A stretch of DNA of 64,000 nt from Candidatus Thorarchaeota archaeon (GCA_038893995.1 JAWAQK010000004.1:5837-69836), one strand, 5' to 3'. Positions 8,944 through 64,000 are shown, counted from the stretch's first letter. Numbers and translations are program-made. Notes: a model not told the origin generated them from the sequence alone.

Positions 8944-9048
8944 TACTTACTCCTCTTGACCCAGTCTAAGACCTACTACCTGATGACTCGTACTTAAGAA
9001 TAGCTCGGCTCTGCCCCTGAACCGGGTCAAGGACACACCGCCCGTGTC

Positions 9049-9435: not shown

Positions 9436-9440
9436 ACATC

Positions 9441-9785: not shown

Positions 9786-9864
9786 CCCGTGTCACCACTC
9801 ACTCAGCTGGTCGTCGTCAACAATCGACAACATCATTCTCTCGTGACTGAATATAAACCTTTGG

Positions 9865-10644: not shown

Positions 10645-10745
10645 GAGCGCATCTCGTCAGGACTCGATATTAGAGTTGACGCTGCCGTGTCAAGGTCGTC
10701 TGTTCAACAAAGACTTATCCGGTCATCCTGAATACCGACAGCCGA

Positions 10746-45534: not shown

Positions 45535-46671
45535 CTATGTCCACTCAATTCGGGTCCTGAAGTCGGACACGGCACGGGGTAGTTCCGCCCTTGACTCCAG
45601 CGCTCTGTCTGCCCTGAGTATCACCGCTCGACCAGGTCCACTGTGTTCAGCATCAAATCTCTTTAGCTTGGGGCACGAGAAGAGCGGGCTCACGTCAACG
45701 GAATCGAAGGGATTGTCGCGAAGGTCAAGCACCCGGAGTTCCTCTAGGCCGCCCAATGGGTCTAGACCTATCTCTCTCAGACGGTTCTCGGCCAGTGATA
45801 GTTCTCTGAGGGCATTACACGACCTCAAGGGGGTCAGATCTATCCGTTCTATGCGGTTTCCATCAAGATGTAGTTCTTCTAGTCGGCTGCATCTCTGTAG
45901 CGGACGCAGGTCTGCATCAACGATCTGGTTGTCTGAGAGAAACAGGTATCTTATCGAGCCTGCTTGCCCGAGTGGCGTCAGGTCTACCTCTTGGAGCTCG
46001 TTTCCCCTGAGGTTGAGATACTCGAGGTGCCTGCAATCGCTGAGCGGTCCCAGGTCGATTTTCCTCAGGAGGTTCCTCTCCAGCTCCAGCCTCTTGAGCT
46101 CCGGACAGCCCCGGAGTGGGCTGAGATCGATCCCAGTCAGGCGATTGTTGGTCAGTCCGAGATACGTGAGCCTTGGGCACTGGCGGAGAGGTTGAAGATC
46201 CACCTGTTCGAGCTGATTGTGTGTCACTCCCAGATATCGGAGGCTCTGACAGTCAACTAGAGGTGCCAGGTTCACAGAACGCAGGGCGTTGTCTGAGAGA
46301 TACAGACTCCTCATATTGACACACTCGGACAGAGGTCCCAGGTCTACTGTCTCTATCAGATTAGATGAGAGATCAAGCTCCGAGAGCTCTAGGCAGCTGC
46401 TCAGTGGCCTGAGATCAATCTTCTCAAGCTGATCCCATCTCAGACACAGCTCTCTGAGACTGGAGCATTCTCGGAGTGGACTCAGATCGACCTCGACAAT
46501 TGGGTTCTCAGCCAGCGTCAGCCTCTCGAGTCTGCGGAGATGTCTCACCGGAGACAGATCAATACTCTTGATGTCCATCTGGACCAGATTGATCTCCGTG
46601 GCGTCAACATGAATCTTGATCTCCTCCCCGTCAGAGTCAGTAGTGGAATACTTCAAGGTGACATAGTCCAT
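45535..46671 (-). CDS. Leucine-rich repeat protein (LRR only)
   Basis: 12-13 tandem 24-residue units of the form LxxLxLxxNxLxxIDLxPLxxCxx. Confidence 0.85.
   Translation of the reverse strand: MDYVTLKYSTTDSDGEEIKIHVDATEINLVQMDIKSIDLSPVRHLRRLERLTLAENPIVEVDLSPLRECSSLRELCLRWDQLEKIDLRPLSSCLELSELDLSSNLIETVDLGPLSECVNMRSLYLSDNALRSVNLAPLVDCQSLRYLGVTHNQLEQVDLQPLRQCPRLTYLGLTNNRLTGIDLSPLRGCPELKRLELERNLLRKIDLGPLSDCRHLEYLNLRGNELQEVDLTPLGQAGSIRYLFLSDNQIVDADLRPLQRCSRLEELHLDGNRIERIDLTPLRSCNALRELSLAENRLREIGLDPLGGLEELRVLDLRDNPFDSVDVSPLFSCPKLKRFDAEHSGPGRAVILRADRALESRAELPRAVSDFRTRIEWT
45651..46593 (-). repeat. 72-nt periodic coding repeat (LRR array)
   Basis: Back-to-back 24-codon units visible in the translation, for example LRELCLRWDQLEKIDLRPLSSCLE and LSELDLSSNLIETVDLGPLSECVN. 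Confidence 0.8.
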
Positions 46672-46761: not shown

Positions 46762-48246
46762 ATGCCAGCTGGCCGATGCTGGACAAGACCCTCGATCATG
46801 CCCCGTTACATTCACAGTCCTGGCGGTGGGCTGTTCCCCAGCCACAAGAGTTATGGAGAGCATCTCTATTCACCGAGGTACATGCGGGTTGACGCACGAC
46901 TACTCCCGAACGGTGTCTCGGTATCCTTCAAGGGAAATGAGTACCCCATACTATATCCGGACGGTGTCTGGTCCAGTGTTCCAGAACAGACGAGAGTTGC
47001 GCTCCGCGACAATCTCGCAGTCATGGCAACAATGCATCTACCCCTGGTATTTGGGGAGGACCACGTGACCTACGGCACGGGCCGGCCTTATCTGGAGCCA
47101 TACCTCTACATGAACTTCATCAAAGACATCCCTTCCTGCACGGAGATTGATGGTACCGACACTGCGGAAACGATTCGGAGATTCTACAATACCAGGTACG
47201 AGTTTGAGCACTCGGACATAGTCGTTCCATCGCCAGATCCTGTTGACTCACCCCACAGGGCCATTGTGGGTCTCAGCTTTGGAAAGGATAGCCTCCTCAC
47301 GTACGCCGTGGCTGACGAGATTGGACTAGAGCCTGAGAGCGTCTATGTCATCGAGGAGAGCATGACCTATGAGCAGAAACACAAGACGGCGCTGGCCGCG
47401 GAGTTCAAGAAGGAGTTCGGGAAGGAACTGAAGACCCTCATTCATGACACTGGCAGGCTCAGAGACTACGATCATCTGGGCCTACCACAGTCTGAACTTG
47501 GATGGGGTCTCCAGACGAGTGAGTATGTCCTGGAGCTGCTACCGTTTGCCTACTATCTTCATGGTAAGTATCTTCTCTTCGGGAACGAGCAGACCGCCTC
47601 TGCAACCTACATGAGCAATGATGCGAGTGGACCGTGGTTGGTATATCCCTGCTTCGACCAGTCTCACGAGTGGACTGTACATCTCGACCAGGTTTCGCAG
47701 GCCTTCTCAGGACGCTCAGTCAGGACGGGGAGCCTGATCGAGCCACTTATGGACATGATGATCCAACGGATACTTGTGAGGCGTTATCCCCAATATGCCA
47801 AGTACCAGATGAGTTGCTTCACGATCGACGAGCATGGTCGTGACTATCGCTGGTGTCACCATTGCTCGGTCTGTGCAAAGATGTATCTCATGTGTGTGGG
47901 TGGCGGCGTCGATCCGGCCATGATTGGTCTGAGAGAGGACATGCTTGCATCATCCAAGAGACATCTGTTTTCTCTGTTCGGAGGCAAGTCTGACATGCCA
48001 TACCTGAACTCAGAGGCCGCTCGTGACGAGCAGATATTTGCACTATACTCCGCAGCCAAGAAGGGAGTGCGTGGTGACCTGATCGATGAGTTCAGACATA
48101 GCAGTCACTTCAAGGAGGCACAGGCACGGGAGGACGACCTCATGAAGAAGTTCGTTCGACTGTATGAGCCAATCTCACTGCCCAGGGAACTTCGGGACCA
48201 GGTGATGTCGATCTACCGGGAGGAGCTGGCACTCTTTGAACTCTGA
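46762..48246 (+). CDS. Hypothetical protein with a PP-loop-like motif and a C-terminal Cys cluster (possible adenine-nucleotide alpha-hydrolase superfamily)
   Basis: IVGLSFGKDSLLTYAV resembles the SGGxDS PP-loop. WCHHCSVCAKMYLMC is a Cys cluster. The true start is uncertain. Confidence 0.4.
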   Translation: MPAGRCWTRPSIMPRYIHSPGGGLFPSHKSYGEHLYSPRYMRVDARLLPNGVSVSFKGNEYPILYPDGVWSSVPEQTRVALRDNLAVMATMHLPLVFGEDHVTYGTGRPYLEPYLYMNFIKDIPSCTEIDGTDTAETIRRFYNTRYEFEHSDIVVPSPDPVDSPHRAIVGLSFGKDSLLTYAVADEIGLEPESVYVIEESMTYEQKHKTALAAEFKKEFGKELKTLIHDTGRLRDYDHLGLPQSELGWGLQTSEYVLELLPFAYYLHGKYLLFGNEQTASATYMSNDASGPWLVYPCFDQSHEWTVHLDQVSQAFSGRSVRTGSLIEPLMDMMIQRILVRRYPQYAKYQMSCFTIDEHGRDYRWCHHCSVCAKMYLMCVGGGVDPAMIGLREDMLASSKRHLFSLFGGKSDMPYLNSEAARDEQIFALYSAAKKGVRGDLIDEFRHSSHFKEAQAREDDLMKKFVRLYEPISLPRELRDQVMSIYREELALFEL

Positions 48247-48305
48247 TGGGACTGACCTGGCTGAGTGCTCAAGGTTATATGTCTCACGAGGGGGTAGGAC
48301 ACACA

Positions 48306-49301
48306 ATGAAGATTGCTCTTGTCTTGAACACCAGAAGATCAGACTCTGAGTTCGAGGTGGAGTACGATCCACCTCACACGATTGAGTTGATACGACATGG
48401 GATAGAGGCCACGGGTCATAAGTACGTATTTATCGAGGCGGATGAGGACCTCTATGCCAGACTCAGGCGTGAACGTCCCGACCTGGTCTTCAACCGTGCA
48501 GAGGGTATCAGGGGGGAGAGCAGGGAGTCTCATGTACCTGCGATTCTCGAGATGCTCGGCATACCTTACGTGGGCTCAAATGTCCTGACCACCGCAGTCT
48601 GTCTCAACAAGGCCTGGACCAAGAAGGTCCTCATCTACCATCGGATACGCACACCGGAGTTTCAGCTGGTCCGGAGCGTTCGTGAGTTGGATGTGAAACG
48701 CGTCAGGTATCCCGCCATCCTGAAACCCAACGAGGAGGGGTCCTCGATGGGTGTCAACGAGGATAATGTGGTGCACGACTCTGACCATCTGCAGGCGAAA
48801 CTGAATGAGATGCTGCGCATCTACGATGGCGGCGTGATAATCGAGCAGTTCATTGCCGGGCGCGAGTTCAGTGTAGGCGTTCTAGGCACACCGCCTCACG
48901 ACGCCGAGGTATTGCCGATACTAGAGGTAGACTTCTCCAGGATGCCCCCTGAAGTGGGAAACGTACTCGGGCAGCGCGCTAAGACCGTACTCGACTCATT
49001 AGACCACTATGTCTGTCCCGCAGAGACAGACACGCGGCTGAGGAGACGGATCGAACGTCTGGCACTCGAGATATGTCAGCACCTTGGAGTCGTTGACTTC
49101 TGTAGGATCGACCTCAGGATGAATGACAAGGGTGAGATATACTTCCTCGAGGCGAACCCCCTGCCCGGGATGGACTTCGACATGGAGGAGCGTGACTTCT
49201 CGTTCTTCCCATTCATGGCAATGAAGGCGGGCTATACCTACGATGAACTCATCCGCCGGATCCTGGAGTCCGCATGTCGTCGGTACGGACTAGCGTTATG
49301 A
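48306..49301 (+). CDS. D-alanine--D-alanine ligase-family ATP-grasp enzyme
   Basis: GESRESHVPAILEMLGIPYVGSNVLTTAVCLNKAWTKKVL, PAILKPNEEGSSMGV, IIEQFIAGREFSVGVLG, FCRIDLRMNDKGEIYFLEANPLPGM. ATG 48306 chosen. Confidence 0.8.
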   Translation: MKIALVLNTRRSDSEFEVEYDPPHTIELIRHGIEATGHKYVFIEADEDLYARLRRERPDLVFNRAEGIRGESRESHVPAILEMLGIPYVGSNVLTTAVCLNKAWTKKVLIYHRIRTPEFQLVRSVRELDVKRVRYPAILKPNEEGSSMGVNEDNVVHDSDHLQAKLNEMLRIYDGGVIIEQFIAGREFSVGVLGTPPHDAEVLPILEVDFSRMPPEVGNVLGQRAKTVLDSLDHYVCPAETDTRLRRRIERLALEICQHLGVVDFCRIDLRMNDKGEIYFLEANPLPGMDFDMEERDFSFFPFMAMKAGYTYDELIRRILESACRRYGLAL

Positions 49302-49337
49302 CACTGACAGACGCAGTCGTTCACGAAGTGGTCATCA

Positions 49338-49901
49338 TTGAGGATTCACAACAGTAGTTGCAGTTCATCGCGGGTCTGGTGCGAGCTGGAGCGGTCTCTC
49401 TCCTCACTCCTGGGCCGTCCTGTCCGACTGTGGTTTCCGACAAGGTGGTCCCAGAGAGTACTCGGGTGCTTTCGACAGGCCGACTCGGTATTTCGAGAGT
49501 CACTGAGGTACAGTCAGGAGGAGATCTTGGACCGACTCCATAACGACGATCTGGTCCTCATGTTCGTGATGGCGGGCCGGCAGGTGGAGGGTGTCCTGCT
49601 TGGATACTCGTTCGAGGCGTCAGAGCGGAGGGTCTTCTACCTTGACACAATTGCAGTACGTAGAAGGGGACTGGGACTGGGTACGCGTCTTCTGTGCTCG
49701 CTCATTGAATGGTCGATGATGTCTGGCTTTGAGAGCCTATTGCTCGATACCGAGGATGCTGACGAGAATGGATTTCGGCTTGCTGACTTCTATGGCAGGT
49801 TTGGATTCACGCGCGTCTCAGAGGACGAGCATGGGGATATAACGATGGAGCTTGACCTGAGAAGCAAAGGTCTCCCTCCCCGGTGCCGGGGTGATGGGTG
49901 A
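49338..49901 (+). CDS. GNAT-family N-acetyltransferase
   Basis: Acetyl-CoA motif IAVRRRGLGLGTRLL, then a YGRFGF C-terminal motif. Confidence 0.62.
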   Translation: MRIHNSSCSSSRVWCELERSLSSLLGRPVRLWFPTRWSQRVLGCFRQADSVFRESLRYSQEEILDRLHNDDLVLMFVMAGRQVEGVLLGYSFEASERRVFYLDTIAVRRRGLGLGTRLLCSLIEWSMMSGFESLLLDTEDADENGFRLADFYGRFGFTRVSEDEHGDITMELDLRSKGLPPRCRGDG

Positions 49902-49922
49902 TCTAGTGCGGGTCAGCCCATG

Positions 49923-50927
49923 TTACGAGAAGTCTCTGCCAGTCAGAATAGCGACGAACCGTCCCTTGACGGTGACCTTGTTGTCTGTCAGGGCAGACAG
50001 TACAGCAAGCGTACTTGCAGAGGCTGGAAGGACATTCAGCCCCTCTTCTTCTCGAAGAAGCCTCGCAAATTCAATCATCTTTGTATCCGACGCGTAATCG
50101 GCAAACCCATCTGACTCGTAGATAGCATCCAGCGCCTCTTGTCCATCAAACGAGTGCCAGTTGGTGAGAGGCTCGTTTACCTTGCTCTCCTTGATCTCGT
50201 CCCTCGACAGGTCAATGAGCGTTCTGCTCTTGAGCAGATATGACTTCACGATGGGATTTCCTCTCCTCGTGCTAGTCGCCACCATACGCGGAATCTCCGA
50301 TATCTTGCCGGACTCGTAGAGCCTCTTGAAGCCTGTGAAGATGCCCGCAAATGTGGTCCCATTGCCGACAGGACAGAATACGTAGTCTGGGGCCCGCCTC
50401 AGATCTCTAAAGATCTCGTATGCTATCTCAGCATACTCGTTGATCGACAGTTGTTTGACACCGTCCACCCCAGGATTCGCGTTGAACCATCCCTTGTCCT
50501 CGCATATCTCAGAGGAGAGCTTGACCAGGTCCTCGTATTGACCCTCCTCATAATGGATTATGGCCGACCCCTCGATCATCCTCCTCAGTCGGTCCCTAGG
50601 CACATGATACCCCTTGGGAATGAAGATATGTGCCTCGAGCTCCCACAACTTGGCCGCATATGCAAGTGCAGCACCGAAATTACCGCAGGTCGCGGATGCT
50701 ATGGCCTTGAATCTGTTGTTCCAGGCCATCTCTGCAATTGCAAGAGCGATCCGGTCCTTCTGTGTTCCCGTAGGATTGCCGAGCTCGCACTTGAGGTAGA
50801 GCTTCTCGACCCCTGCGCAGCGGGCCACATTTCGTGCATCCACCAACAACGAGGACCCGGCTACGTCCTTGAATCTCGCCTTGGGAGGTTCTCGTCTCAA
50901 TCGTGTGCCGTTATGGTCACTTGTCAT
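49923..50927 (-). CDS. PLP-dependent fold-type-II enzyme (Thr synthase / Cys synthase / deaminase superfamily)
   Basis: LYLKCELGNPTGTQKDRIA (Schiff-base Lys) and CPVGNGTTFAG glycine loop. Confidence 0.72.
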   Translation of the reverse strand: MTSDHNGTRLRREPPKARFKDVAGSSLLVDARNVARCAGVEKLYLKCELGNPTGTQKDRIALAIAEMAWNNRFKAIASATCGNFGAALAYAAKLWELEAHIFIPKGYHVPRDRLRRMIEGSAIIHYEEGQYEDLVKLSSEICEDKGWFNANPGVDGVKQLSINEYAEIAYEIFRDLRRAPDYVFCPVGNGTTFAGIFTGFKRLYESGKISEIPRMVATSTRRGNPIVKSYLLKSRTLIDLSRDEIKESKVNEPLTNWHSFDGQEALDAIYESDGFADYASDTKMIEFARLLREEEGLNVLPASASTLAVLSALTDNKVTVKGRFVAILTGRDFS

Positions 50928-51065: not shown

Positions 51066-52388
51066 CTAGCCTAGGGAGCAACCATTGTCGGATGAGTGGC
51101 TCGTCCTGCTGAGTCTCAGGGCTCTTGCAGAGCACTCGGCAGCTCTGACAGTATCTCCGATTTCCTCAAACAGTCTTGCGGCTACCTCCCAGGTACGCCG
51201 TGCCTCGTCATCTCTGTGAAGTCGCTCGAGCACTAGGGCTCTCCTGTAGAGAGGTTCTGGATTGTCAGGTGCAATTGCAAACGCATCGCTGAAGTCAGAC
51301 GCAGCCTCTTCAAGTCTGCCCGATATCTCATGCACGATCCCTCGGCCGTAGGCAGCCTCCCAGTTGCGGGGCTGAAGACTCCGCGCCGTGTGATAACACT
51401 CCAGGGCTGTGCCCATGTCGCCCTCCAGAGCCAGCACCTGTGCCGTCTTCACCCACGCCTCGACATTGTCTGGGTCTGAGTTGAGCACTTTCTCGTACGC
51501 CGACGCTGCCTTATCATAGGCCTTCAGCATCCGGTGTGCATCACCTTTTCTCATCCAGATGGTCAGATCGTCTCTTTTGATACTGACTGCTCGTTCATAG
51601 AGCTCTACGGCCTTCTCATACTCCCGCTGGGCCAGATAGGTATTGGCAAGTTCGGCCAGCAAGTAGGGGTCATTGGGACTGATAGAGACTCCATCTGTCA
51701 GGATATCTCTTGCCATGTCTGATCTGCCCTGCTGAAGATAGAGCCTACCGAGCTCAAGGTAGGCCGGACCATAGTCAGTCTTGGACCATATTGCTTTCCG
51801 GAGCCAAGTAGTGGCCTGCTCGAGCCTGCCCATTCGCGCCATCAGGACTCCCCGGAGGTAGTAGACCATGAAATTCTCAGGATCTATCTCTGCCGCTATG
51901 TTCAGATGACCCTCACAGAGGGACAGCTCGCCGGTCGCAAGGTACAGACGCGCCAGAGCTATATGCACAGAGTAATCGTCGGGATCCAGTTCAAGTGCAC
52001 TTCTGAATGATGATCGCGCCCCATCAAGTCGGCCCTCACTGTAATACGCCCACCCCATGTTCAGCCAGGCAGTACTCATCTTTGGATCTATCTCGACGGT
52101 CTTACGGTAGAGTGCGATGGCCCTGTCGTAGTCGCTCTCCAAGAAACGGAGATTTGCAAGCCTGTACAGGAGTGTCGAAAGACGGGGGTCACTCTTGAGT
52201 GACTCAAACTCTTGCTCGATCCTAGACTCCAACTCATCTATGTCTTTCTTGACCTCCGGGCGGGTGATCAGACGATGTACAGTTTCGGGGGATATCTCCA
52301 GGTCGATCCCGATCTTGTTGAGGTCCATCATCATCGTTGTCAATAGGTCGGGCGTATTCCAGTCACCCTCCTTCTTGCGGACTAGCAT
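51066..52388 (-). CDS. Tetratricopeptide repeat protein
   Basis: About 9-10 consecutive 34-aa TPR units (W..G.AY...G....A...F..AL..DP). No TM or signal sequence. Confidence 0.85.
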   Translation of the reverse strand: MLVRKKEGDWNTPDLLTTMMMDLNKIGIDLEISPETVHRLITRPEVKKDIDELESRIEQEFESLKSDPRLSTLLYRLANLRFLESDYDRAIALYRKTVEIDPKMSTAWLNMGWAYYSEGRLDGARSSFRSALELDPDDYSVHIALARLYLATGELSLCEGHLNIAAEIDPENFMVYYLRGVLMARMGRLEQATTWLRKAIWSKTDYGPAYLELGRLYLQQGRSDMARDILTDGVSISPNDPYLLAELANTYLAQREYEKAVELYERAVSIKRDDLTIWMRKGDAHRMLKAYDKAASAYEKVLNSDPDNVEAWVKTAQVLALEGDMGTALECYHTARSLQPRNWEAAYGRGIVHEISGRLEEAASDFSDAFAIAPDNPEPLYRRALVLERLHRDDEARRTWEVAARLFEEIGDTVRAAECSARALRLSRTSHSSDNGCSLG

Positions 52389-52445: not shown

Positions 52446-55400
52446 TCATGTGACGACTTGGACCGGTCTGAGACTGGAAACTCTGTGTTCTCCTTCACCA
52501 GTGTCATACTCGATTATCCCGACCAGTTCTCCTGTTGAGCCGGGTTCCAGCTCGAATGCAATCTCTGCGACGACGGACGTGCCCGGCTCAACTGTTCCGA
52601 TCGTCTTGCTGACTATTGACTCTGTCAGACTGGGAATCGCCAGAGTCACCTGCGCATTGTTCATGGCGACACTCGACTGATTTCTCACGACGATACCGAA
52701 TATTGTTCGGCCCTCTCGAATCTTGTAGTCCACAACGACATCCATGCCTGGTTCGAGACCCGGACTCATCGGCTCGCTCATGGTGAGATGCTCCTTCTTG
52801 GCCCTCCTGCCTCTCGTACTTCTGGCGACTGCACCGAGTAGTGCTCCGATGGCGATCAGGACTGTCAGGTGCAGTCCCCAGTGGACCTTGGGATCAGGGT
52901 CGAGCGCATCAATGAGCCCATCCCTATCCGAGTCGGGACTCAGAGGGTCGGTACCATATAGGACTACCTCCTCGTAGTCCGTCCAGCCGTCCCCATCCGT
53001 GTCAGGAGTCAGAGGGTCAGTACCATGACGATGCTCCAGTCCGTCCGATAGTCCATCCTGGTCGGTATCGCTGTTCGTCGGATCCGTCCCAAGGACAACG
53101 ACCTCAAAGTAGTCGCTCAGAGTATCATTGTCTGTGTCTATTCTCCTGGGGTCGGTACCCCGTGAGGCCTCATCATAGTCGCTCAGACCGTCTCCATCAG
53201 TGTCGAACCTCAGAGGACTCGATCCATAGACATAGACCTCATCGTAGTCAGTGAGGAGGTCTCCGTCAGTGTCCGAGTCAGCAGGATCTGTGCCCAGGTC
53301 GACCTCCTCCGGGTCTGAGAGCCCGTCAGCATCGGTATCCCACAGAAGCGGTGAACAGCCATATCGATGGACCTCATGTCCATCCAGCAGTGAGTCCTCA
53401 TCGGTGTCAGGGTCAAGAGGGTCTGTGCCCGCCTGCACCTCGTCTCCATCGTTCAGATCATCATCGTCCGAGTCCGGATCTAACGGATGAGTATGATGCA
53501 CCCGGAGTTCATTGAGGTTACTCAACCCGTCATAGTCCGAATCCCAGTCCGAATCGAGGATTCCGGGATGAGTCATATTCGTCAGTGGGCTGGTGTTGGT
53601 CAGAAACACCTCCTCATAGTCAGTCAGCTGGTCGTCGTCCGTATCGGTCTTGACAGGATTCGTGCGGTAGTTGTTCACTTCACTGCCATCATTCAGTCCG
53701 TCCTTGTCAGTATCGATGGCAAGCGGGTCTGAACCATGTATCTTGACCTCATCGTAGTCGGACAGACCATCCATGTCCGTATCTCTATTGATCGGGTCTG
53801 TGTGATAGATCTTGACCTCCTCTCCATTCTTCAGACCATCTCCATCCTCGTCGTCCAGAAAGTCCATTATGCCATCTCCGTCCGTGTCTCTGAGTCTCGG
53901 ATTGGTCCTGGTCAGCACACATTCCTCATAGTTCGTTAGAAGATCGAGGTCTCCGTCCTCATCGCCATCAAGCACACCATCATTGTCCGTATCCGCCACT
54001 GATGGGTCTGTGAGTGTGAGTGTCAACTCCTGAAGGTTTGTGAGACCGTCGAGATCCTTGTCCCAGTCTGCGTCAGACGTGCCATCCCCCTTTGTGCTGT
54101 ACAACAGGGGATTCGTGAGTGTCTGAGTGACCTCCTGATAGTCGGTCAGTCCATCGCCATCGGTGTCACGACGCAATGGATTCGTAGCATGAATCTGGAC
54201 CTCTTGATAGTCAGTCAGCCCATCTCCATCGGTGTCCCGCTTGTTCGGATCTGTGTTATGGAGATAGACCTCATGATAATCAGACAGTCCGTCGCCATCA
54301 GTGTCCGGATTCAACGGATCCGTGTTGAAGACCTTGATCTCGTCGTAGTCAGAGAGTCCGTCGCCGTCTGAGTCCGGAGTGTTTGGCAACGTGTGGTATA
54401 GACGGACCTCGTCGCCATCGCTGAGCCCGTCTCTATCCGAGTCTTTCTGTCTCGGGTTGGATGAGTATACCCTTGTCTCGTCAAAATCAGTCAGTCCGTC
54501 CTCATCTGTGTCTCTCGAGAGAGGGTTGGTGTTGTAGACATTGACCTCATCAAAGTCAGAGAGGCCATCCCCATCCGTGTCGTAGAGTGTGCAGTTTGTA
54601 TTGAACAAGTAGATCTCTTCGAAGTTCGAGAGTCCATCTGCGTCATTGTCATCAAGAAAATCGATGATGCCATCTCCGTCAGTATCTGGGTTGAGGGGGT
54701 CTGTGTGCGCGTTCAGGATTTCGTCGCTATCAGTCAGTCTGTCGCCGTCGGTGTCTGAACTTGTCGGCATTGTCCCATATAGCCTGACTTCGTCAGCGTC
54801 GTTGAGGCCGTCACCGTCAGTGTCCGCAAGGAACGGATCTGTACTCCACCGGACCTCCTCACCATCAGTCAGACCATCATCGTCTGAGTCTTCGTCGAGA
54901 GGATCAGTATGATAGACATACACTTCGTCATAGTCCGATAGTCCGTCACCATCTGTGTCGTTGTTCCTAGGGTCTGTTCCAATCCGGACCTCATACCAGT
55001 CATCCAACAGGTCTTGATCGCTGTCCTTCCTACTTGGGTCCGAATTGTGTATGTGCACCTCGTCACCATCGGAGATACGGTCTCCGTCCGAGTCCCAGTT
55101 TGTCGGGTCTGTGTCCCAGATGTACACCTCTTCGTAGTCTGACAGACCATCATAGTCAGAGTCCGCCACTCTTGGACTAGTGTGATATACGTGGAACTCT
55201 AGGTAGTCGCTCAGACCATCGTCGTCCGTGTCCTTGTCGGTTGGGAGAGAACCAACGATGTGTATCTCCAGTCCGTCCGGTAGGCCATCCCCGTCAGTGT
55301 CACTTGACAGGGGGTCTGAGCCCCATCCGTATATCTCCAAACCATTAGCGACCCCGTCCCCGTCACTGTCAAGGTAGAAGTCTGATGTCCCATTCCCATA

Positions 55401-58400
55401 TGTACTCCACAGGGTAGCATTGGTCCCGAGGACCATGATCTCCCAGTAGTCTGAGAGTCCATCACCATCGGTGTCCTGTCTGGTCGGGTCCGATCCATAT
55501 TCGACCTCCGCTAGATCATAGACCCCATCTGCATCGGTATCGGCCCTGAGCGGATCGGTCTGGTACTGCATCACCTCAAGGCCATCCGAGAGTCCATCGT
55601 CGTCAGTGTCACTGTCTTCCGGAGACGTACCGTACACGTCAATCTCCTGACCATTACTCAGAGAGTCGCCGTCGGAGTCGTAGTCGTAATCGGAAACTCC
55701 ATGAGTCATTGGATTGTTTGGATCAGTTGAGGTGTACGTGACCTCTACGAAGTCTGTCAGTCCGTCCCCATCGGTGTCCCGCTTGTTCGGATCTGTGTTA
55801 TGGACATAGACCTCCTGATAGTCAGACAGTCCGTCGCCGTCTGTGTCTGGTTTGAGCGGACTTGTGTGATGTGCATTGACTTCTGCACCGTCGCTCAGAC
55901 CGTCTCCATCAGTGTCGGCGTTGAGTGGATCCGTCTTGTAGGTATTGACCTCTCCCCCATCATTGAGGCCATCTCCGTCGGTGTCAGGTCTCAGCGGATC
56001 AAGTCCTGCAAGTATCTCGAACCGGTCAGTCAGTGAGTCGCCATCAGTGTCTGCAAGGAGGGGGTCGGTATTATAGATGCGTATTTCATTCAGGTTCGAC
56101 AACCCGTCGTGGTCTTCATCGTCCTCTGCGTCGCCTATCCCATCTTGGTCTGAGTCTCTTCTGAGTGGATTGGTTCCAGTCTTCAAGACCTCCTCTCCAT
56201 CTGTAAGCCCATCACCGTCAGTGTCCCGGCTCAACGGATCCGTACCGGCGAGGTATTCTGCCAGATTTGATAGACTATCAGAGTCCGGATCTTCAAACGC
56301 GTCTGATATTCCATCGTCATCGGTGTCGTCGTACAGTGGGTCCGTGCCGGTCATGATGACTTCGAACCAGTTGACGAGGCCATCTGAATCAGAATCATAC
56401 ATGTCGTCACGTGGTTGACCAGTCCCATGCGAGTATGGAATGAGCGGGTCCGTCTTTGTGACGTATAATTCAATACCATTAGTCAAGCGGTCCTCGTCAA
56501 AGTCTTCATCGTAATCATTGATGGAGTCATCGTCGCTGTCAGGATCGAGAGGGTCTGTCATGAGTACAAGGACCTCATGGCCGTCCAGAATCCCATCCTC
56601 GTCTGTGTCGGGTCTTCTCGGATGCGTGTTGTATGTCGCGAATTCCTCGTAGTTGGTGAGTAGGTCCAGGTCGTGATCTTCATAGTCATCTCTTACCGAA
56701 TCTAGGTCGGTGTCCTGAAGGAGTGGGCTGGTCAGCGTGAAGTATATCTCGTATCCGTTAGGGAGTCTGTCCCCATCGTAGTCCCAGTCGTAGTCATTTA
56801 CTGTGCTGCTGAAGGTGTGAGCGTTGGTCGCATTGAAGACCGGATACAGGTTCACTTCTTGTTTGTCGCCTATACGGTCGCCGTCGGTGTCCCACAAGAG
56901 GGGGCTCGTATGGTAGATGTTCACCTCGGTTCCATCGTCAAGGCCGTCATTATCGGTGTCAGCCCTTGTTGGGTTCGTGTGCCATACCATGACCTCATCG
57001 TAGTCTGACAGTGAGTCCAGGTCTGTGTCTCTGACAAGAGGACTGGAACCCCATGTCTTGACCTCTGCTCCATCAGAGAGCCCATCATCATCCGTATCGT
57101 TATCGAGTGGATCTGTCCTGTATGTGAATATCTCTTCGTAGTCACTCAGTCCGTCATCATCTGTGTCTGCATCCAGAGGATCCGTCAAGTAGTAGACATG
57201 CTCTTGGTAGTCACCGAGTCCGTCATCGTCTGAGTCGCTGTCTGTTGGTGAACTGTGGACGATCATGACTTCCTCATAATCATTGAGACCATCACCATCT
57301 GTATCACGCAGAAGTGGGCTCGTCTTGTAGGTCTTGACCTCGTCACCATCTAGTAGTCCATCTCCGTCCGTATCGGGATTCAGTGGATCTGTTCCTATAG
57401 CAATCTCCTTCCAGTTGGACAGATTGTCACTGTCCTCGTCGTCGTAGTAGTCCGACACTCCATCATTGTCCGTATCGACACTGTTTGGATCTGTCCTTGT
57501 GAGCCTGACCTCCTGAATGTTGGTGAGGCCCTCGCCATCGTTATCATCTGCATCGTCACTGAGCCCGTCGCCGTCGCTGTCTGGATCAGTCGCGAGGGTC
57601 ATGGTGACATTGTTCTCCTCGTAGTCAGTTAGTCTGTCACCGTCAGTGTCAATCGAGTTCGGATTTGTACCGAGATAGACCTCCTGCCAATCTGTGAGTA
57701 GGTCGCCGTCCGAGTCGACCATGTTGGGATCAGTGTGATAGACTATCACCTCGCTGAAATCATCCAGTCTGTCGCCGTCGGTATCCAGTAGCAAGGGGTC
57801 TGTGTTGTACTCCAGATACTCCTGTCCATCACTCAGTCTGTCACCATCGGTGTCCCAGACATCCCAGAGGGTGCCAACTATCAGGTTCTCAGCTGCATCG
57901 GCCAGCCCATCCCTGTCATAGTCTCTACCGTAGACATCCATCTTGGATGCGCCACGTGCAAGGGCAATCTCAGACCCAAGTACTGAGTCGATGTTGCCCG
58001 TCGACAGTACTCCTTGAAAGCCCTGAATCGTGAGCTCGGAGACGAACCCTCCCGTCGAATTGAGTACGGTGATGCGATCCTGTGTCGAGACTAGAACTTG
58101 GTCTGAGCCCATGTTTCCAATGTCAGCAACATCGAATCTAAGGACAGATGCAGTCGCATTCGAACTCCAGAGAGAACTCCCTGTCCCCGCATAGACCCCG
58201 ACTAGTCCTGCACTGGTCCCAACTACCAACTCATTCTTTCCCCCAGCGACGACGTCTACCGCCACGAGTGCTGTCACTCTGTCACTGAGAGTGAGCGAAT
58301 ATGCAACGGTCCCGTTGCTGTGTGCAACTCTGACTGTCCTGTCACCGTCTACATAGATGGCCTCCTGAGCAGGGGTTCCTAGTAGATCGCCCGAGGCTAT

Positions 58401-59114
58401 TGCGCTCGTTCCGGAGGACAGGCTCTTCTCAAACAACACGGTCCCGTTGTTGTCGAGCAGGAGTAGTTTACCTGTGGACGATGATACGAGGATCTCTGCC
58501 TGACTGTCCACGTCGAAGTTCCCTGTGACCACTCTCAGTATGCGGCCTGATGTAGACACATTCCAGCTCTGTATTCCGTTCGCTTTGAACGCATATATGA
58601 CTCCAAGATCCGACCCTACGACTATCTCGTCTAGTACGTCAGCATCTATGTTGGCTACGGCAAGTGATGACACGCCGCCAAAGATCGGAATGCTCGTCAG
58701 AAGACTCCTGTTGGCACCAATGACAGCGATGCCGCTAGAGGTCGCAACACATATCTCTCTTGGTCCCGTGGAGTCGGCGCTGAGTCCAGCGAGTGCAACA
58801 GGCACTGCTCCTAGTCCATATCCCCAGATCAGCTGTCCGGTCTCTGAATAGTGAAGCAGCTGACTCATGGATGTCGCTGCCACGACCTCGAGATTGGAGT
58901 CGTAGTCAAAGTTGTCTAGTACTACAGCGACCGTCTGTGAGGCTGTGTTGGTGGTCCATACAAGTGCCGTTGCGAACGTCGGAATGTCGCTGACGTACAT
59001 ACAGTCCTCAACAGTCGTGATGTCCGTTACACTGTCTGGCATGACAGCCCCAGCGTGACTCATGATGATGAGTGCAATGAACAGAAGCAGAACAGTGCCA
59101 TACAGATTTCTCAT
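52446..59114 (-). CDS. Giant (2,222 aa) secreted, C-terminally anchored protein: signal peptide, FG-GAP/VCBS-like beta-propeller, about 75 thrombospondin-type-3-like Ca-binding repeats, one TM helix, 123-aa cytoplasmic beta-rich domain
   Basis: Start taken at [24 protein letters not shown] (ATG 59114, forming ATGA with the upstream stop). Propeller blades such as [22 protein letters not shown]. Repeated [13 protein letters not shown] units. [19 protein letters not shown] followed by [10 protein letters not shown]. Confidence 0.85.
52902..57923 (-). repeat. Tandem array of DxDxDG calcium-loop (TSP type 3-like) coding repeats, about 22 aa / 66-69 nt period
   Basis: My manual count gives about 75 loops between residues 409 and about 2082 of the track ORF. 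Consensus T(D/N)[20 protein letters not shown]. Confidence 0.85.
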
Positions 59115-60145
59115 CTTTCTTCCTCCGGTTTCTTCCCATGTTTCCACGGCTTGACCTCGAAAAAGTCAAAGAAGTCGGCCTCAGCGACTGACACCTCTAC
59201 AAGGGGCAGTCCTCTCTTGTGGAAATCTCGCATTAGCGTCAGCAGAGCTTCGTTCGGCTGATCGACGAACAGTTTCAGTGCGTTCCTCCCTGAATTCACG
59301 ATGTACCTGACGATAGGCATCTCACCGATGCTACTGACCATAGCTGGCGTGAGCTTAGTCAGGACGACCTTGATACACTCTCCCTTACCTGGTAAAGTGG
59401 ATATGAGCGCTTCTGGAGTGTCAAACTGACTCACGGTCCCATTCTCGAGTAGGCATACTCTGTTGCAGTAGTCAACTATCTCTAGGTCGTGGCTTATGAT
59501 GACCATCGTTGTACCGAGCTCAAAGTTGAGCTTCTTGAGATAGTTCAGGGTCTCATGCCTGAGATGGGCATCAAGGCCTGTCGTGGGCTCATCAAGTAGC
59601 AGTACTGGGGGGTCGTGAAGCATGCCCATACATATCGAAACTCGCTTCTTCTCGCCTCCAGAGAGTCGTTCGACCCTCTTGGTCATGAGTTCCTCATCGA
59701 AACCTAGTATCTCGAGGATGTCGCGTGCCCTCTCGTCTATCTCTCTCGGACGCATCCCGAAACAACGTCCAAAGAACTGTGCATTCTGGAGGGCTGAGAA
59801 GTCGTAGTACAGACTGTTGTGCTCAAGTTGAGGTACATATCCCACAAGGAGGCTTATGAGCGACCTCTTCTTGGTGACATCGTAACCGCTCACATAGGCC
59901 TTTCCCGATGTCGGACTCACTTGACCAGTGAGGACTCTGAGCACTGTCGTCTTGCCAGCTCCAGAGGCACCAATTATTCCGAGGAACTCGCTCCGGTTGG
60001 CAAACAGCGACACGCCTCTGAGGGCCTCGACCTTGCCAAACTTCACCCTGAGATTGACGAGCTCTATCTCATGAGTGGCCTCACCCGACGTTTCAGACCC
60101 CTCCCACTCGCTTGCTGATCCTCTTGAAGTCCCTCTTGGCATCAT
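59111..60145 (-). CDS. ABC transporter ATP-binding protein with a C-terminal accessory domain
   Basis: Walker [10 protein letters not shown], signature LSGGEKKR, Walker [12 protein letters not shown], plus a C-terminal extension of about 110 aa. Confidence 0.85.
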
Positions 60146-63100
60146 CCATCATCTTCATCATGGCCCTCAGGGACTCCACTTTCTGCACACGGTCGAGGTC
60201 TTCGTTCCTGATCACACCCTCCATCTGCACAAAGGCAGCCAGAAACTTGTTCATCGTGTTGTCGATGTCCTGCCCGAGAAACAGGTCCACCTCCGGAATT
60301 CGGAGCTGCCTTCGGAGTCTTCTCCTATTTGCGAGGATCGAGGCCGTGGTGACACCGAATATGGATGAGGAGACAATGATTGCCACTTGCGGCATGGTCA
60401 GGATCCTCTCGATGGGCGGCGGCTGTGGAGGTGGCTCTACGACATAGAGCCAGAACTTGGTGCTGGCGAAGGTTCCAGCGTACTCAGCCGTGGTCAATAC
60501 GATGAAGATGCAGTTCACTCGTCCCTCGTCTCGGTAGTATGAGGGCATGAACTGGGACGCATACAGACCGTTCTCAACAAATGCTGCGAAGAAGTAGGTC
60601 AGGCTACCGTTGGGCAGTTCAAATGCCACAGCGACGAACAGATCATTGACGGGATGTCCTCGGATGTCCGTCAACCTCAGGCTCAGATAGACACTCTTCC
60701 CGACCGGATATCTCTCCCTCTGCTCGGTAAGCTGAGCCCTCGCAATCAGCGTATTCTCGAGGAAGAAGTCATTCAAGTTCTCCAGCAGTCTGCTGTTGTC
60801 ACATCTTGGTAGGTTCGTGTTGGTGAATAGGGACGATGAGCCGAACAACACCAGTCTGGGAGGGCTCTTGTCCATCAGTATCACGGGGATACCGTTGACC
60901 CTTGCAACTCCTTGTGATTGATTGTTGAGTACATAGGTCCCGCCACCTAGCCACACACAGCTTATCCCGTCTGCAAGCTCTGACGAGGTAGCAATGTCAG
61001 TCGTGTTCTCGGCATCATGTTGGCCGGCCATCCTATAGCCGTAGACAGAGAGGAGCGGGTTCAGTGCAGTGATGTTTGCCTTCCCGTCGTGGTCACCAAA
61101 GATGACCAGCCGTCCCCCTCTGTTTGTGAAGTCCCTCAGTGTCTGTATCTCGGTGCTGTTGTATTCCCTCGTCGGTCTGACTATGATGATTCCAGAGAAC
61201 TGACTCAGGGTCTCCGACTTCAGGCCACCGCCCGGCATCTCGATCAGGTCTAGTCCCACCGATGCCATCCTCCTCTTCATCTCGTAGAGCGCCGAGAACT
61301 TTGAAAGACGGAGTGACTCCATGATGTCGTTGATCGCCCCGAGGTTCTCCATCTCCTGCAGTGAGATACCTCCCTGAACACCACTGGCGTTCGCGACAGA
61401 GACTTCCCCACTGCCCATCATGCCGAAGAGGCTGTTGCTGTGCGATGTGTCAAGCAGGATCATGGCCACAGGATACCTTATGCGTGTGTCAAGGACGACT
61501 CTGGTCGTGTATCCTGAGCCCGTGACTATCTCGTAGTCACACCGGTAATTGCCGTCCATCACGATCGCTGGAACGAACGCTGTCAGTGAGAGACTGGTAC
61601 AGCAGGTATCATGGACAGTTTCAGACACTGTCAGGTTTCCCCATAGGGTGGCATTCCCCCGGCTGGTCACACTGATTCCGCCCAAGGGCCTGGTCGAGTA
61701 CAGCACAACTCCATACATTCCGAAGTCTGCTGGAAACAGGAGATCGAAGGGTGCACATGGCAGCTGCTTGGGGAAAATGGAGACCGACCACAGGGGATCC
61801 ACGACGAACACATCACGATTGAGGAAGTCGTCGAGTGATCGAAGACCCTCCTGTAGCAACTGAGGACCCAATGAACCAAACAGCTCGATGACCTGCTGTA
61901 GCCCTGTACCCACGACCCACGCAACGGAATACACATCACTGAACTCGGGCCTCCAGCTTGCAACGACAGATACAGCACGGAATGGTTTTACTACTCCGAG
62001 GGACGACACGCTGGAGTAGACGGTACCACTACCCTGTCTGATCCGGCCAGCCAGGAAGGCTGCGACCATTGACGAGGGTTCCAGTCCGACATTCATTACT
62101 ACTGCACGTGACTCGTAAGAGTCGCCGGGCGCCCCCTGCCTGCGCATGTCAGACTCTACCACAATCAGGTCGCCTCGTTGTTGCATCTGGAACGAGGGAC
62201 CCCTCTGCCACAGCTCAGCAATCACGCTGTCCAGTTCCGACCTATTCTCCCCAAAACCCACTGCAAGTGTCAGGTTTCCGACATCTCTGACGCCTATCGA
62301 GCCTATTCTCCACCCTGCAGCCAGACCGACCTGGCCGTCGAACGAGGGTGAGTTGGTGAGTCTACCACGCGCCACGTTGTCACTCACGGCCGAGGAGTTT
62401 CCCACATCGAATCCAGACATGGGCATGCTAGAGTTGAATCCAAAGTAGAAGCTCTGCAGATCTTCGGATATACCATAGCAGAACAGCATGTTGTTCTGAA
62501 TTGCGGCCCTCCCATGGTCAGCAAGTCCGTCAGTGAAGATGTCAACCGAGAAATTCACGTAGAGCGTGACATTCTCGAGTTCGCGGAGCCCAACATTGTT
62601 CACGAAGATGCTGACCTTCAGTCCAGTCGACGGAAGCACATTGAGGATGTTGTTCCTGCTGTACGACTCCGCAAGTAGGATGACATAGAAACCATCCTCG
62701 TGATACAGGATCCCAACGTAACGGTTGTAATCATCCAGCCCAGTGCCGAGATGCACCTGGTGGAACTCGCGCTTCACGGTAAAGAGCATCAGATTCGTCG
62801 GGCTCACGTTATTCCAGCCTAGCGAGAACATTCCGAGCAACAGGTGAAGCGCTGCGTCGTTCGTTCCTCGCTCATCGAGAACGGCGGTCATCGTTCCATA
62901 GCTGCTCATCAGGACAGTACTAGTGGAATTCTGGCCGCTAGAGGACACTATACCCATCGCGAGTAGTGGGACTCCTGTAGTCCTCGCATGAGATTCCACA
63001 GGTGACTGTAGTCTCCTGAGGTAGTCAAAGGCGGCAGACACATTGATCAGTCCTGCTCCTGCATCGTTGGCTCCATATGGGAGCTGGGTGGCTGTGTCTC

Positions 63101-64000
63101 TGAGAGCGTTGGAGATTGCAATGGGCATTGCCCTATCGAATGCCTGGATCAGTATTGCTGCTGCTCCAGCCACTATTGCTGCTGCTGCAACAGTGGTGTC
63201 CGCCACCACGTAGTAGTCGTCTATGCTCTCTCCCAGCTGGCCGCCAAGCAGTTCTGAGATACTGCTGAGACCCTCGAGGTCGAGACCCTCCACACCCAGG
63301 GACGCCAGTCCTACGCCAGCGCGGGCCCCGATCACTCCCATGCCAGGTGCCACGATGTCTGGTTTGGCCATCATCTCGAATGTGGGCCCTCGGCCGGAGA
63401 AACGCGGTATCTCACCTGACGCCATGTCATACGCTCCCACGGTCAGTGCATGTACTGATGCACCGGGCGACATGATTGTGAGATAGTCAGGTCCATCATC
63501 GCCAGCGGCAGCCACCACCAGTACACCCTTCTGGGTAGCCAATTGAACCGCTCTTGTAACTACGTCTCCGGGGGCACCAAGCACGTTGAACGGCATCAGT
63601 ATTATGTCTGCGCCTCTGCTACATGCCCACTCGATTCCAGACACGATCCAGCTGGGTGCTGCCAGGATGCCTCCAAATGTCACCTTTGCCGATATGAGGG
63701 TCGCTCCGGGCGCCACGCCCGCATAGACGCCGCCGGAACAATTACCCGTTCCTGCCACTATTGACGCCGCATATGTTCCCGGGCCGAGGATGTCAATGGG
63801 TAGCGTATCGATCTCGACGAACGAAGCGAATGCAGTGACCTTGCTGTCGAGCGTATTGTTGTTGTCGTCGAAGTCATCCAAGTCCGGGTGTAGGAAGTCA
63901 ACCCCGGTGTCAAGTACTGCGATGACCACTCCACTGCCGTTGTAGCCCATGTTCCAGAGTTCCCTGATACCGAGCAGGTCGACGAGCGGTACATAGTCCG
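60093..64000 (-). CDS. Subtilase (S8)-like protein with apparently degenerate catalytic triad, large extracytoplasmic region, C-terminal TM anchor and 78-aa cytoplasmic tail; 5' end outside the window
   Basis: GVVIAVLDTGVD (Asp box). GPGTYAASIVAG where HGTH is expected, AAAGDDG where AAGN is expected, ADTTVAAAAIVAG where GTSMAAP is expected. The frame stays open upstream to position 64000 (..DLLGIRELWNMGYNGSG). Confidence 0.8.
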   Translation of the reverse strand, partial: DYVPLVDLLGIRELWNMGYNGSGVVIAVLDTGVDFLHPDLDDFDDNNNTLDSKVTAFASFVEIDTLPIDILGPGTYAASIVAGTGNCSGGVYAGVAPGATLISAKVTFGGILAAPSWIVSGIEWACSRGADIILMPFNVLGAPGDVVTRAVQLATQKGVLVVAAAGDDGPDYLTIMSPGASVHALTVGAYDMASGEIPRFSGRGPTFEMMAKPDIVAPGMGVIGARAGVGLASLGVEGLDLEGLSSISELLGGQLGESIDDYYVVADTTVAAAAIVAGAAAILIQAFDRAMPIAISNALRDTATQLPYGANDAGAGLINVSAAFDYLRRLQSPVESHARTTGVPLLAMGIVSSSGQNSTSTVLMSSYGTMTAVLDERGTNDAALHLLLGMFSLGWNNVSPTNLMLFTVKREFHQVHLGTGLDDYNRYVGILYHEDGFYVILLAESYSRNNILNVLPSTGLKVSIFVNNVGLRELENVTLYVNFSVDIFTDGLADHGRAAIQNNMLFCYGISEDLQSFYFGFNSSMPMSGFDVGNSSAVSDNVARGRLTNSPSFDGQVGLAAGWRIGSIGVRDVGNLTLAVGFGENRSELDSVIAELWQRGPSFQMQQRGDLIVVESDMRRQGAPGDSYESRAVVMNVGLEPSSMVAAFLAGRIRQGSGTVYSSVSSLGVVKPFRAVSVVASWRPEFSDVYSVAWVVGTGLQQVIELFGSLGPQLLQEGLRSLDDFLNRDVFVVDPLWSVSIFPKQLPCAPFDLLFPADFGMYGVVLYSTRPLGGISVTSRGNATLWGNLTVSETVHDTCCTSLSLTAFVPAIVMDGNYRCDYEIVTGSGYTTRVVLDTRIRYPVAMILLDTSHSNSLFGMMGSGEVSVANASGVQGGISLQEMENLGAINDIMESLRLSKFSALYEMKRRMASVGLDLIEMPGGGLKSETLSQFSGIIIVRPTREYNSTEIQTLRDFTNRGGRLVIFGDHDGKANITALNPLLSVYGYRMAGQHDAENTTDIATSSELADGISCVWLGGGTYVLNNQSQGVARVNGIPVILMDKSPPRLVLFGSSSLFTNTNLPRCDNSRLLENLNDFFLENTLIARAQLTEQRERYPVGKSVYLSLRLTDIRGHPVNDLFVAVAFELPNGSLTYFFAAFVENGLYASQFMPSYYRDEGRVNCIFIVLTTAEYAGTFASTKFWLYVVEPPPQPPPIERILTMPQVAIIVSSSIFGVTTASILANRRRLRRQLRIPEVDLFLGQDIDNTMNKFLAAFVQMEGVIRNEDLDRVQKVESLRAMMKMMDDAKRDFKRISKRVGGV

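Follow-up and report, generated by a model that had tools for sequence, protein, structure and literature searches.

Repeated head to tail, the calcium-loop motif DxDxDGxxDxxE forms the type-3 wire of thrombospondins and COMP; in the eukaryotic wire, 13 such motifs, locked by disulfides, wrap a C-terminal lectin domain. Long rods that hold a canopy or ligand-binding domain at a fixed distance from the membrane are also found in the calcium-stiffened extenders of RTX adhesins (e.g. Marinomonas MpIBP) and in the archaeal tetrabrachion stalk. Integrin alpha, LINKIN (ITFG1) and ITFG2 have in common a type I layout, i.e. a distal beta-propeller with Asp-rich A-B loops, a stalk, one transmembrane (TM) helix and a cytoplasmic part. 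CglD of Myxococcus xanthus (NF033765), a beta-integrin-like gliding adhesin rich in bacterial thrombospondin type-3 (TSP3) loops, is a Ca2+-dependent surface adhesin linked to a trans-envelope machine (bioRxiv 10.1101/2023.10.19.562135), and the 'dockerin-type' giants of Omnitrophota are predicted to be membrane-anchored and extracellular, with numerous bacterial TSP3 repeats (bioRxiv 10.1101/2023.11.21.568195). Here, we describe the architecture, conservation, topology signals and operon of a giant protein that can be compared with each of these systems. It is encoded in a 64,000-nucleotide stretch of DNA from a Candidatus Thorarchaeota archaeon (GCA_038893995.1 JAWAQK010000004.1:5837-69836; hereafter the window) and comprises an N-terminal propeller, an array of 72-75 TSP3 loops, one TM helix and a C-terminal tail.

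The giant gene is a single open reading frame (ORF) on the minus strand, unbroken over 6.7 kb from an ATG at 59114 to a stop at 52446-52448. It encodes 2,222 residues, to which an alternative in-frame GTG start at 59147 would add 11. An earlier reading of the window from its sequence alone (the sequence-only reading) had given the correct coordinates, length and anatomy without stating the strand; neither the conservation across Thorarchaeota, with its frozen repeats, nor the ABC-2/GldG-like operon figured in it. Asp accounts for 18.7% of the protein and Cys for five residues in all, and Kyte-Doolittle analysis detects two hydrophobic segments only, residues 4-28 and 2079-2097. A Pfam scan returned TSP3_bac (PF18884) and, over residues 49-346, weak beta-propeller families. 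The protein is genuine and intact, a membrane protein from the Thorarchaeota lineage of Asgard archaea. Exact-sequence look-ups found no record of it (with either start) or of the ABC ATPase encoded directly upstream (ATPase 2, see below); the downstream TPR protein alone was matched, on a 3.2-kb contig. The family is undescribed in the literature searched by full text, and the sole source name given for one relative is 'hypothetical protein'.

Both the number of loops and their spacing are frozen across species, and no part of the protein is better conserved than the cytoplasmic domain; together, these features point to a fixed-length spacer or adhesion receptor. We therefore favour, at slightly better than even confidence, a stalk of fixed length that is stiffened by calcium, serves in adhesion or in the envelope and has transmembrane coupling, a function that we infer as follows. 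After Sec-dependent export and removal of the signal peptide, the propeller would sit at the far end, held out by a stalk of ~1,680 residues with 72-75 Asp-rich TSP3 loops. Ca2+ would load the loops, and the strongly acidic chain would stiffen into a rod of defined length, setting the distance of the propeller from the membrane in which one TM helix would anchor the rod. The 125-residue cytoplasmic part, a linear motif plus a beta-sandwich, would bind an intracellular partner, and the stalk would thereby link the outside (a substrate, a partner cell or an envelope canopy) with something inside the cell. The giant protein would be co-produced with the other operon products, namely an ABC-2 permease, two ABC ATPases and a pseudo-subtilase/GldG-like protein, and probably functions together with them. 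Ligand binding by the propeller, partner binding by the tail, coupling to ATP hydrolysis and stiffening by calcium are the predicted elements of this scheme.

The described systems differ from this protein in instructive ways. Against the CglD model NF033765, the whole protein scored 487.8 bits (cut-off 400), a score that is made up of 16 partial, repeat-driven stretches, the best of them covering model positions 167-299 of 1,124. CglD, an outer-membrane lipoprotein, contains a VWA domain and many fewer repeats; the giant protein has neither VWA (by Pfam) nor lipobox, and its propeller, TM helix and cytoplasmic domain have no counterpart in CglD. The full-length match including VWA and the outer-membrane lipidation of a CglD equivalog are thus lacking, and the host archaeon has no outer membrane. 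Compared with the thrombospondin/COMP wire of 13 motifs, the array is several-fold longer, and the five Cys and the absence of TSP_C, EGF or coiled-coil in Pfam set the protein apart from a family defined by a disulfide-locked wire with EGF and a thrombospondin C-terminal domain. Integrin alpha has a propeller of seven FG-GAP blades of ~60 residues, whereas here there are eight 44-residue repeats whose closest structure is BBS2; thigh and calf domains and GFFKR are absent, the leg is a TSP3 array, the tail has 125 residues, and neither a beta subunit nor any other VWA gene is present in the operon. The Omnitrophota giants are bacterial and at least 30,000 residues long, their TSP3 repeats are interspersed with dockerin and discoidin domains, their assemblies are fragmented, and neither a conserved fixed length nor a cytoplasmic beta-sandwich is reported for them. 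The sequence-only reading had placed the repeat number far above that of the eukaryotic wire or of typical bacterial OmpA-TSP3 proteins; as the Omnitrophota giants too carry many TSP3 repeats, large arrays of this kind do have precedents.

The rods of RTX extenders and tetrabrachion are of different chemistry, BIg domains and coiled coil respectively, as opposed to TSP3 loops. RTX extender repeats are also near-identical and vary in number, whereas those of the giant protein are diverged and frozen. Tetrabrachion has a C-terminal anchor and an associated subtilisin-family protein, as in the operon described below. By analogy, the fixed-length-linker logic of the giant protein would resemble that of integrin, LINKIN or the tetrabrachion stalk. 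The building blocks, i.e. TSP3_bac repeats, FG-GAP/PQQ-like propellers and E-set sandwiches, are already known; what sets this protein apart is an array frozen at ~72 loops, a conserved DUF11-like domain on the cytoplasmic side and the link to an operon encoding an ABC-2 system and a pseudo-subtilase/GldG-like protein.

The loop array across Thorarchaeota

PF18884 matched the giant protein with 625.3 bits (cut-off 25; E=2.6e-193), 29 stretches passing individually, which places it among the bacterial TSP3 repeat proteins (units of 22-23 residues with a DxDxDGxxDxxE loop). A permissive expression, [DN]x[DN]x[DN]xxx[DN], found 80 overlapping or 72 merged loops between residues 398 and 2070, spaced mostly by 23 residues and in places by 22, 12 or ~35. 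A hidden Markov model (HMM) built from the units themselves, circular as a test and valid for counting, delineated 75 units, 74 of them with i-E<0.01. These per-repeat counts bear out the ~75 loops of the sequence-only reading. The array spans 1,678 residues and has a net charge of -404. At one to two ions per loop, as in the thrombospondin wire, it would hold ~70-150 Ca2+.

A search with the region from the TM helix to the C-terminus retrieved two partial proteins, one labelled Candidatus Thorarchaeota. The tail alignment was then run against GTDB genomes, one for each species, and gave 44 loci, one per assembly, with tails 56-62% identical. All are from metagenome-assembled genomes (MAGs) of Thorarchaeota or 'Promethearchaeota', except one labelled Hermodarchaeota, and on these sequences the family appears specific to Thorarchaeota. 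Complete ORFs were present at 29 loci, encoding proteins of 2,233-2,286 residues with 70-74 merged loops and a signal-like N-terminus; together with the window protein they constitute the 30 orthologues used below. The three loci where the ORF is interrupted or contains Ns keep the full gene length.

The MAFFT alignment of the 30 orthologues is almost gap-free through the array, with 50-57% identity to the window protein. Mean per-residue identity is ~30-38% for the propeller and 50-72% for the array; around the TM helix it is 39%, and ~58% in the tail. The irregular loop spacing, a kind of barcode, is identical from species to species. Units at the same position in different species share an identity of 0.58, as against 0.41 between units within one protein, and the difference persists at non-motif positions (0.47 versus 0.27); 24-37 of the 72 units find their best match in an orthologue at the corresponding position. 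Judged from these comparisons, the array is an old one of fixed length, with units that are orthologous by position. Most repeat arrays grow and shrink over time, and this one has remained constant in number (~72 loops) and register while the sequences diverged to ~55% identity, which implies that length itself is under selection.

Since repeats are a known hazard for assembly, and the ORF is interrupted at three of the 44 loci (L006 and L034, and L039 where there are Ns), we asked whether the long array could be a collapsed or chimeric assembly product, or the ORF a decaying pseudogene. The DNA copies of the 69-nucleotide units are merely 60-80% identical and hence easy to assemble, which makes collapse or chimerism unlikely, and Tandem Repeats Finder reported one short 2.9-copy stretch in the array DNA and nothing else. 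Length and spacing barcode recur in 29 independent assemblies from different studies, the ORF is intact across 6.7 kb, and the interrupted loci retain a distance of ~6.4 kb between ATPase gene and tail. The array length is genuine, and an artefact or pseudogene, to which we assign next to no probability, is effectively refuted already. The comparison of repeat number across related genomes that the sequence-only reading had proposed as a check thus came out in favour of the array.

Propeller, predicted topology and C-terminal tail

The propeller comprises eight repeats with a period of 44 residues in the 30-sequence alignment, marked by invariant or near-invariant positions (E76, E120, E163, E207, ~251, E295, Q339 and E382). 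Each repeat consists of a strand, an Asp-rich loop and E-hhhG, i.e. an FG-GAP-type A-B loop. PQQ_2 matched the isolated propeller with 32.7 bits (cut-off 27.6), and FG-GAP and FG-GAP_3 were not significant on the window protein (E 0.24 and 0.15). Across the 30 orthologues, the BBS2_Mid, BBS7 and CGLA propeller models matched every protein, Itfg2 matched 25, BBS9/PTHB1 22, FG-GAP_3 16 and FG-GAP 10. The family profile searched against the PDB matched the designed PQQ-like propellers Cake and Bagel (E=5e-19 to 1e-14), then ITFG2 (6.6e-11) and BBS2 (1.2e-10). Word-based searches with the propeller, as a single sequence or as the 30-sequence alignment, retrieved no orthologues, only a fragment of the protein itself and two distant FG-GAP proteins, probably because identity is ~30% and TSP3 words swamp the candidates. 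The two distant proteins (P0026 and P0027) share the propeller type, and BBS2_Mid is recorded for P0026 only.

The propeller was consequently modelled with AlphaFold2 (AF2) from a three-sequence alignment (predicted local distance difference test, pLDDT, 68.8). Seven four-stranded blades were obtained, with the eighth repeat and the N-terminal strand not resolved in the model. Its best Foldseek match was BBS2 (E=2.2e-17; root-mean-square deviation 2.8 Å over 291 columns), followed by Cake/Bagel, BBS1, BBS9, BBS7, ITFG2, YxaL and BamB; integrin alpha was absent among the top 50 matches. Pereira and Lupas defined a VCBS-PQQ supercluster of propellers which includes those of integrins (PMC8023676). 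With blades of ~40-45 residues, Asp-rich A-B loops and significant profile matches, the propeller falls within this supercluster and is of another type than that of integrin alpha. The FG-GAP/VCBS-like propeller of ~370 residues seen by the sequence-only reading was confirmed, while 'integrin-alpha-like' applies only in the broad FG-GAP/VCBS-PQQ sense, the closest structures being BBS2, ITFG2 and designed PQQ-like propellers. The BBS2/BBS7-like matches may be a general property of this class of propellers rather than a link between Asgard archaea and eukaryotes.

All 29 orthologues start with an n-region containing Lys/Arg followed by a hydrophobic core, and the predicted signal peptide is therefore conserved in all 30 proteins. 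The TM helix lies at the same position in every orthologue, and Lys/Arg totals over the 30 proteins are 142 in the 15 residues after it versus 11 in the 15 before, so that the positive-inside flank proposed earlier was also recovered. Signal peptide and charge bias together indicate a type I topology, with propeller and array outside and the tail inside. The ectodomain contains 17-46 N-glycosylation sequons in the 30 orthologues. A sortase-type C-terminal signal (PGF-CTERM-like) was considered for the TM segment and ruled out by the 125 folded, conserved residues that follow it.

The tail measures 125 residues in the window protein, rather than the 123 first estimated, and 122-127 across the 30 orthologues (125 in 23 of them). 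Directly after the TM helix comes a basic stop-transfer flank, then a conserved juxtamembrane motif, T-x-x-E-P-x-S-x-G-L-E-P-G-M; in this stretch T4, P8, S10, G12, L13, G16 and M17 are invariant in 35 sequences. Mean column identity of the tail is 82% over 35 species, making it the most conserved part of the giant protein. An AF2 model, again from a three-sequence alignment, shows a nine-strand beta-sandwich (pLDDT 78.8; predicted template modelling score 0.70), the stretch before it being unstructured with low pLDDT. Foldseek against the PDB placed the luminal domain of TRAP-beta first (E=1.6e-4, TM 0.63), followed by the appendages of AP2 alpha (adaptin) and COPI, ApaG and the C-terminal barrels of transglutaminases.

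Pfam recognised no significant family in the window tail or in 35 orthologous tails (best DUF1344, E=0.0065; DUF11, matching four of the 35 tails, at best E=0.056). An exhaustive HMMER search of 1.84 billion representatives with the tail profile gave 22 matches: a handful of orthologous fragments and, for the rest, large proteins with DUF11/DUF7507/CARDB repeats. Matches to the DUF11/DUF7507 arrays had E=3e-16 to 1e-8, summed over several repeats, and these arrays also match Pfam TRAP_beta, so that sequence and fold evidence agree. The same profile searched against PDB sequences yielded chance-level GAPDH matches only. Model and profiles thus point to a remote beta-sandwich of the CARDB/DUF11/TRAP-beta kind in an otherwise undescribed family, and the prediction of an Ig/CARDB-type sandwich on the cytoplasmic side stood up to this analysis.

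These patterns of conservation bear on a mainly structural role. The protein could be an envelope component, an S-layer-like canopy or a cation-binding matrix, in which the acidic array would serve as a Ca2+/Mg2+ sink or as a spacer defining a quasi-periplasmic space, the tail would be a mere anchor to membrane or cytoskeleton, and the ABC system would be unrelated export, e.g. of envelope glycans. The charge of -404 and the Asp content given above accord with a sink, the fixed length across species suits a spacer, the gene is single-copy in each of 44 species-level genomes, and Staphylothermus tetrabrachion, a long C-terminally anchored stalk carrying a subtilisin-like protease, provides a precedent. 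However, a pure anchor needs no folded domain of 98 residues at 82% column identity with an invariant motif, the propeller shows the lowest conservation of all the parts (~30-35% identity), which suggests adaptation to ligands rather than lattice contacts, and no lattice-forming domain is evident. We consider a mainly structural role unlikely and retain the stalk with transmembrane coupling.

The operon and its neighbourhood

The giant gene is the last of five same-strand genes, preceded by those for an ABC-2 permease, ABC ATPase 1, a subtilase/GldG-like protein and ABC ATPase 2. The window subtilase/GldG-like ORF remains open to the window end without an upstream stop. Wider context was obtained from a metagenome scan with the pseudo-subtilase protein, which provided loci reaching further upstream, and six of them (L052, L057, L060, L064, L070 and L074) contain the identical five-gene, same-strand operon. 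The permease (PF12698) and the first ATPase, both beyond the window end, lie at 5431-8298 of L074 and at the same positions in the other five. ATPase 1 has 559 residues, and its N-terminus resembles the C-terminal sugar-binding domain of TrmB (PF11495, E=1.6e-8). The two ATPases are different, and their nucleotide-binding domains may form a heterodimer.

The third gene (at ~8300-12680 in the six loci) encodes 1,458 residues with N- and C-terminal hydrophobic segments, the C-terminal TM helix being followed by a cytoplasmic helical tail of ~80 residues, and is syntenic in 30 Thorarchaeota loci. Its ABC_transp_aux, DUF4350 and GIFT matches are near or below Pfam cut-offs. We compared its subtilase domain with a hand-entered reference sequence of subtilisin BPN': Asp32 is kept, Ser221 is replaced by Thr and Asn155 by Asp in seven of seven sequences, and in the window His64 is Pro. 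The Asp-His-Ser triad and oxyanion Asn of an active Peptidase S8 enzyme are thus incomplete, and the domain is probably a pseudoprotease, a binding module rather than a maturation protease. The replacement of the catalytic Ser and oxyanion Asn disfavours the S8 partner as the protease that matures the giant protein.

ATPase 2, of 330 residues, is 66-75% identical and adjacent to the giant gene in 32 loci. Its NCBIfam matches to drrA, GldA and NodI all fall below equivalog cut-offs (GldA_ABC_ATP 142.5 versus 402.6). The ATPase 2 stop overlaps the start of the giant gene (ATGA) in the window and in 26 of the 29 loci, and the two genes are translationally coupled.

The gene complement recalls GldAFG and arCOG01314 (DUF4350): a permease of the ABC-2 type is combined with GldA-like ATPases and with an ectodomain protein of the GldG/GIFT/DUF4350 kind that has its TM helix C-terminally. 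Makarova et al. predicted that archaeal DUF4350/GldG-like proteins take part in a novel secretion or membrane-remodelling complex (PMC5898192). In contrast to GldAFG, there are two different ATPases, one of them TrmB-C-like, and the GldG-like part is joined to a subtilase that is probably inactive; arCOG01314 neighbourhoods contain VWA or an AAA+ pair, whereas this operon has neither. NCBIfam cut-offs for GldAFG equivalogs are not reached and the likeness is one of composition only. The operon is a different arrangement of the DUF4350/GldG-like theme.

This composition invites another reading, in which a surface machine driven by ATP has the giant protein as its moving or force-bearing adhesin; archaea would then possess an equivalent of the gliding or focal-adhesion systems of bacteria. 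Permease, ATPases and GldG/GIFT pseudo-subtilase would be a mechanotransmission engine, as in GldAFG, MacB or FtsEX, that grips the sandwich or the stalk and thereby moves, tensions or releases the adhesin. Such a machine would fit the GldA-, GldF- and GldG-like parts in a conserved five-gene operon, the strict ATGA overlap that couples ATPase 2 with the giant gene and the very strong conservation of the tail. The best named NCBIfam relative of the repeat region, CglD, is moreover a gliding adhesin that functions in Ca2+-dependent traction (bioRxiv 10.1101/2023.10.19.562135). Nevertheless, every ABC and Gld match is under its equivalog cut-off, the CglD match is repeat-driven with the VWA domain absent, Thorarchaeota have no known motility, and ABC-2 systems usually export lipids, glycans or drugs. 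To our knowledge, neither the substrate nor the mechanism of GldAFG itself has been established. We consider such a machine quite unlikely. More doubtful still, in our estimate, is a transmembrane mechanical linkage that is integrin-like in its logic, with a ligand-binding propeller on a calcium rod whose length is exactly conserved and the tail gripped by an ABC-2/GldG-type ATPase engine. If it were true, ATP hydrolysis inside could tension, move or release an adhesin outside, and archaea near the origin of eukaryotes would have a machine for adhesion or surface motility, with a propeller of the type shared with the BBSome and ITFG2.

Downstream, a TPR gene follows the giant gene in 43 loci, at a distance of 57 nucleotides in the window, and encodes a protein with no hydrophobic segment. 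In several genomes 1-4 kb of variable genes part it from the giant gene, and we accordingly downgraded it from candidate core member of the operon to a loosely associated gene. In many genomes (L007, L016, L023, L024, L027, L030, L036, L040 and L042), a gene for a conserved membrane protein of ~228 residues (MSLEIYSAVFWV...) directly precedes the TPR gene, between it and the giant gene; the window lacks it at that position. Coordinates of the features are collected in Table 1.

Table 1. Segments of the giant protein and adjoining genes, in window coordinates.
Feature	Position	Strand	Basis or remark
Signal peptide, residues 1-24	59043..59114	-	Hydropathy peak at residues 4-28; start ATG overlaps the ABC ATPase stop
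N-terminal beta-propeller, predicted extracellular, residues ~45-395	57930..58982	-	Pfam, alignment, AF2, Foldseek
TSP3 calcium-loop array, 72-75 loops, residues 396-2072	52899..57929	-	PF18884, regular expression, self-built HMM
Single TM helix, residues 2079-2097	52824..52880	-	Kyte-Doolittle score 1.98; same place in all orthologues
Juxtamembrane stretch, predicted cytoplasmic, residues 2098-2124	52743..52823	-	Basic stop-transfer flank, then conserved linear motif
C-terminal beta-sandwich, predicted cytoplasmic, residues 2125-2222	52449..52742	-	AF2, Foldseek, profile search
ABC ATPase 2, DrrA/GldA-like, cytosolic; exact start uncertain	59111..60145	-	PF00005 E=1.5e-27
Subtilase-like + GldG/GIFT/DUF4350 membrane protein; N-terminus beyond the window	60093..64000	-	PF00082, DUF4350, ABC_transp_aux, IFT52_GIFT
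Cytosolic TPR protein, directly downstream of the giant gene	51066..52388	-	TPR Pfam matches

Further from the giant gene, 46762-50927 of the window encodes a weakly MurL-like protein of 494 residues, a D-Ala-D-Ala-ligase-type ATP-grasp protein, a GNAT acetyltransferase and a pyridoxal phosphate (PLP)-dependent enzyme. This group is syntenic beside the TPR gene in 10 Thorarchaeota loci and may constitute an archaeal peptide-ligase pathway. A leucine-rich-repeat protein of 378 residues (45535-46671, minus strand; LRR_8, E=1e-42) has no counterpart in the 44 related loci and looks like a lineage-specific insertion. On the plus strand are a V/A-type ATPase subunit I (4439-6622) and a HerA-like (DUF87) ATPase (10746-12833), in keeping with an archaeal source. 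The ORF at 6628-8943, examined for its similar AT skew, encodes an unrelated helical protein. Scans of the whole 64 kb for tRNA genes and Rfam families gave no match and hence no RNA marker for taxonomy.

Assessment and meaning for Asgard archaea

Several points weigh against the stalk interpretation. The giant protein is known here from sequence alone. Its type I topology and the cytoplasmic location of the tail are predicted from hydropathy and charge rules only, and that location is awkward for a DUF11-type domain, as these are normally extracellular. The loop motif is the basis from which Ca2+ binding and the shape and length of the rod were extrapolated. The propeller, modelled at modest pLDDT with one repeat missing from the model, would bind an external ligand, for which no candidate is indicated. 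Finally, membership in an operon speaks for co-expression and not for physical interaction.

Asgard archaea are the closest known relatives of eukaryotes, and cell attachment and surface organisation are central to models of eukaryote origin, yet few Asgard surface proteins have so far been defined. The giant protein offers a concrete receptor-like candidate, single-copy in 44 species-level genomes and with defined partner genes. Its tail would place a DUF11/TRAP-beta-like domain on the cytoplasmic side, where it has no obvious partner, and its array provides natural material on how TSP3 loops may build a calcium-dependent rod.

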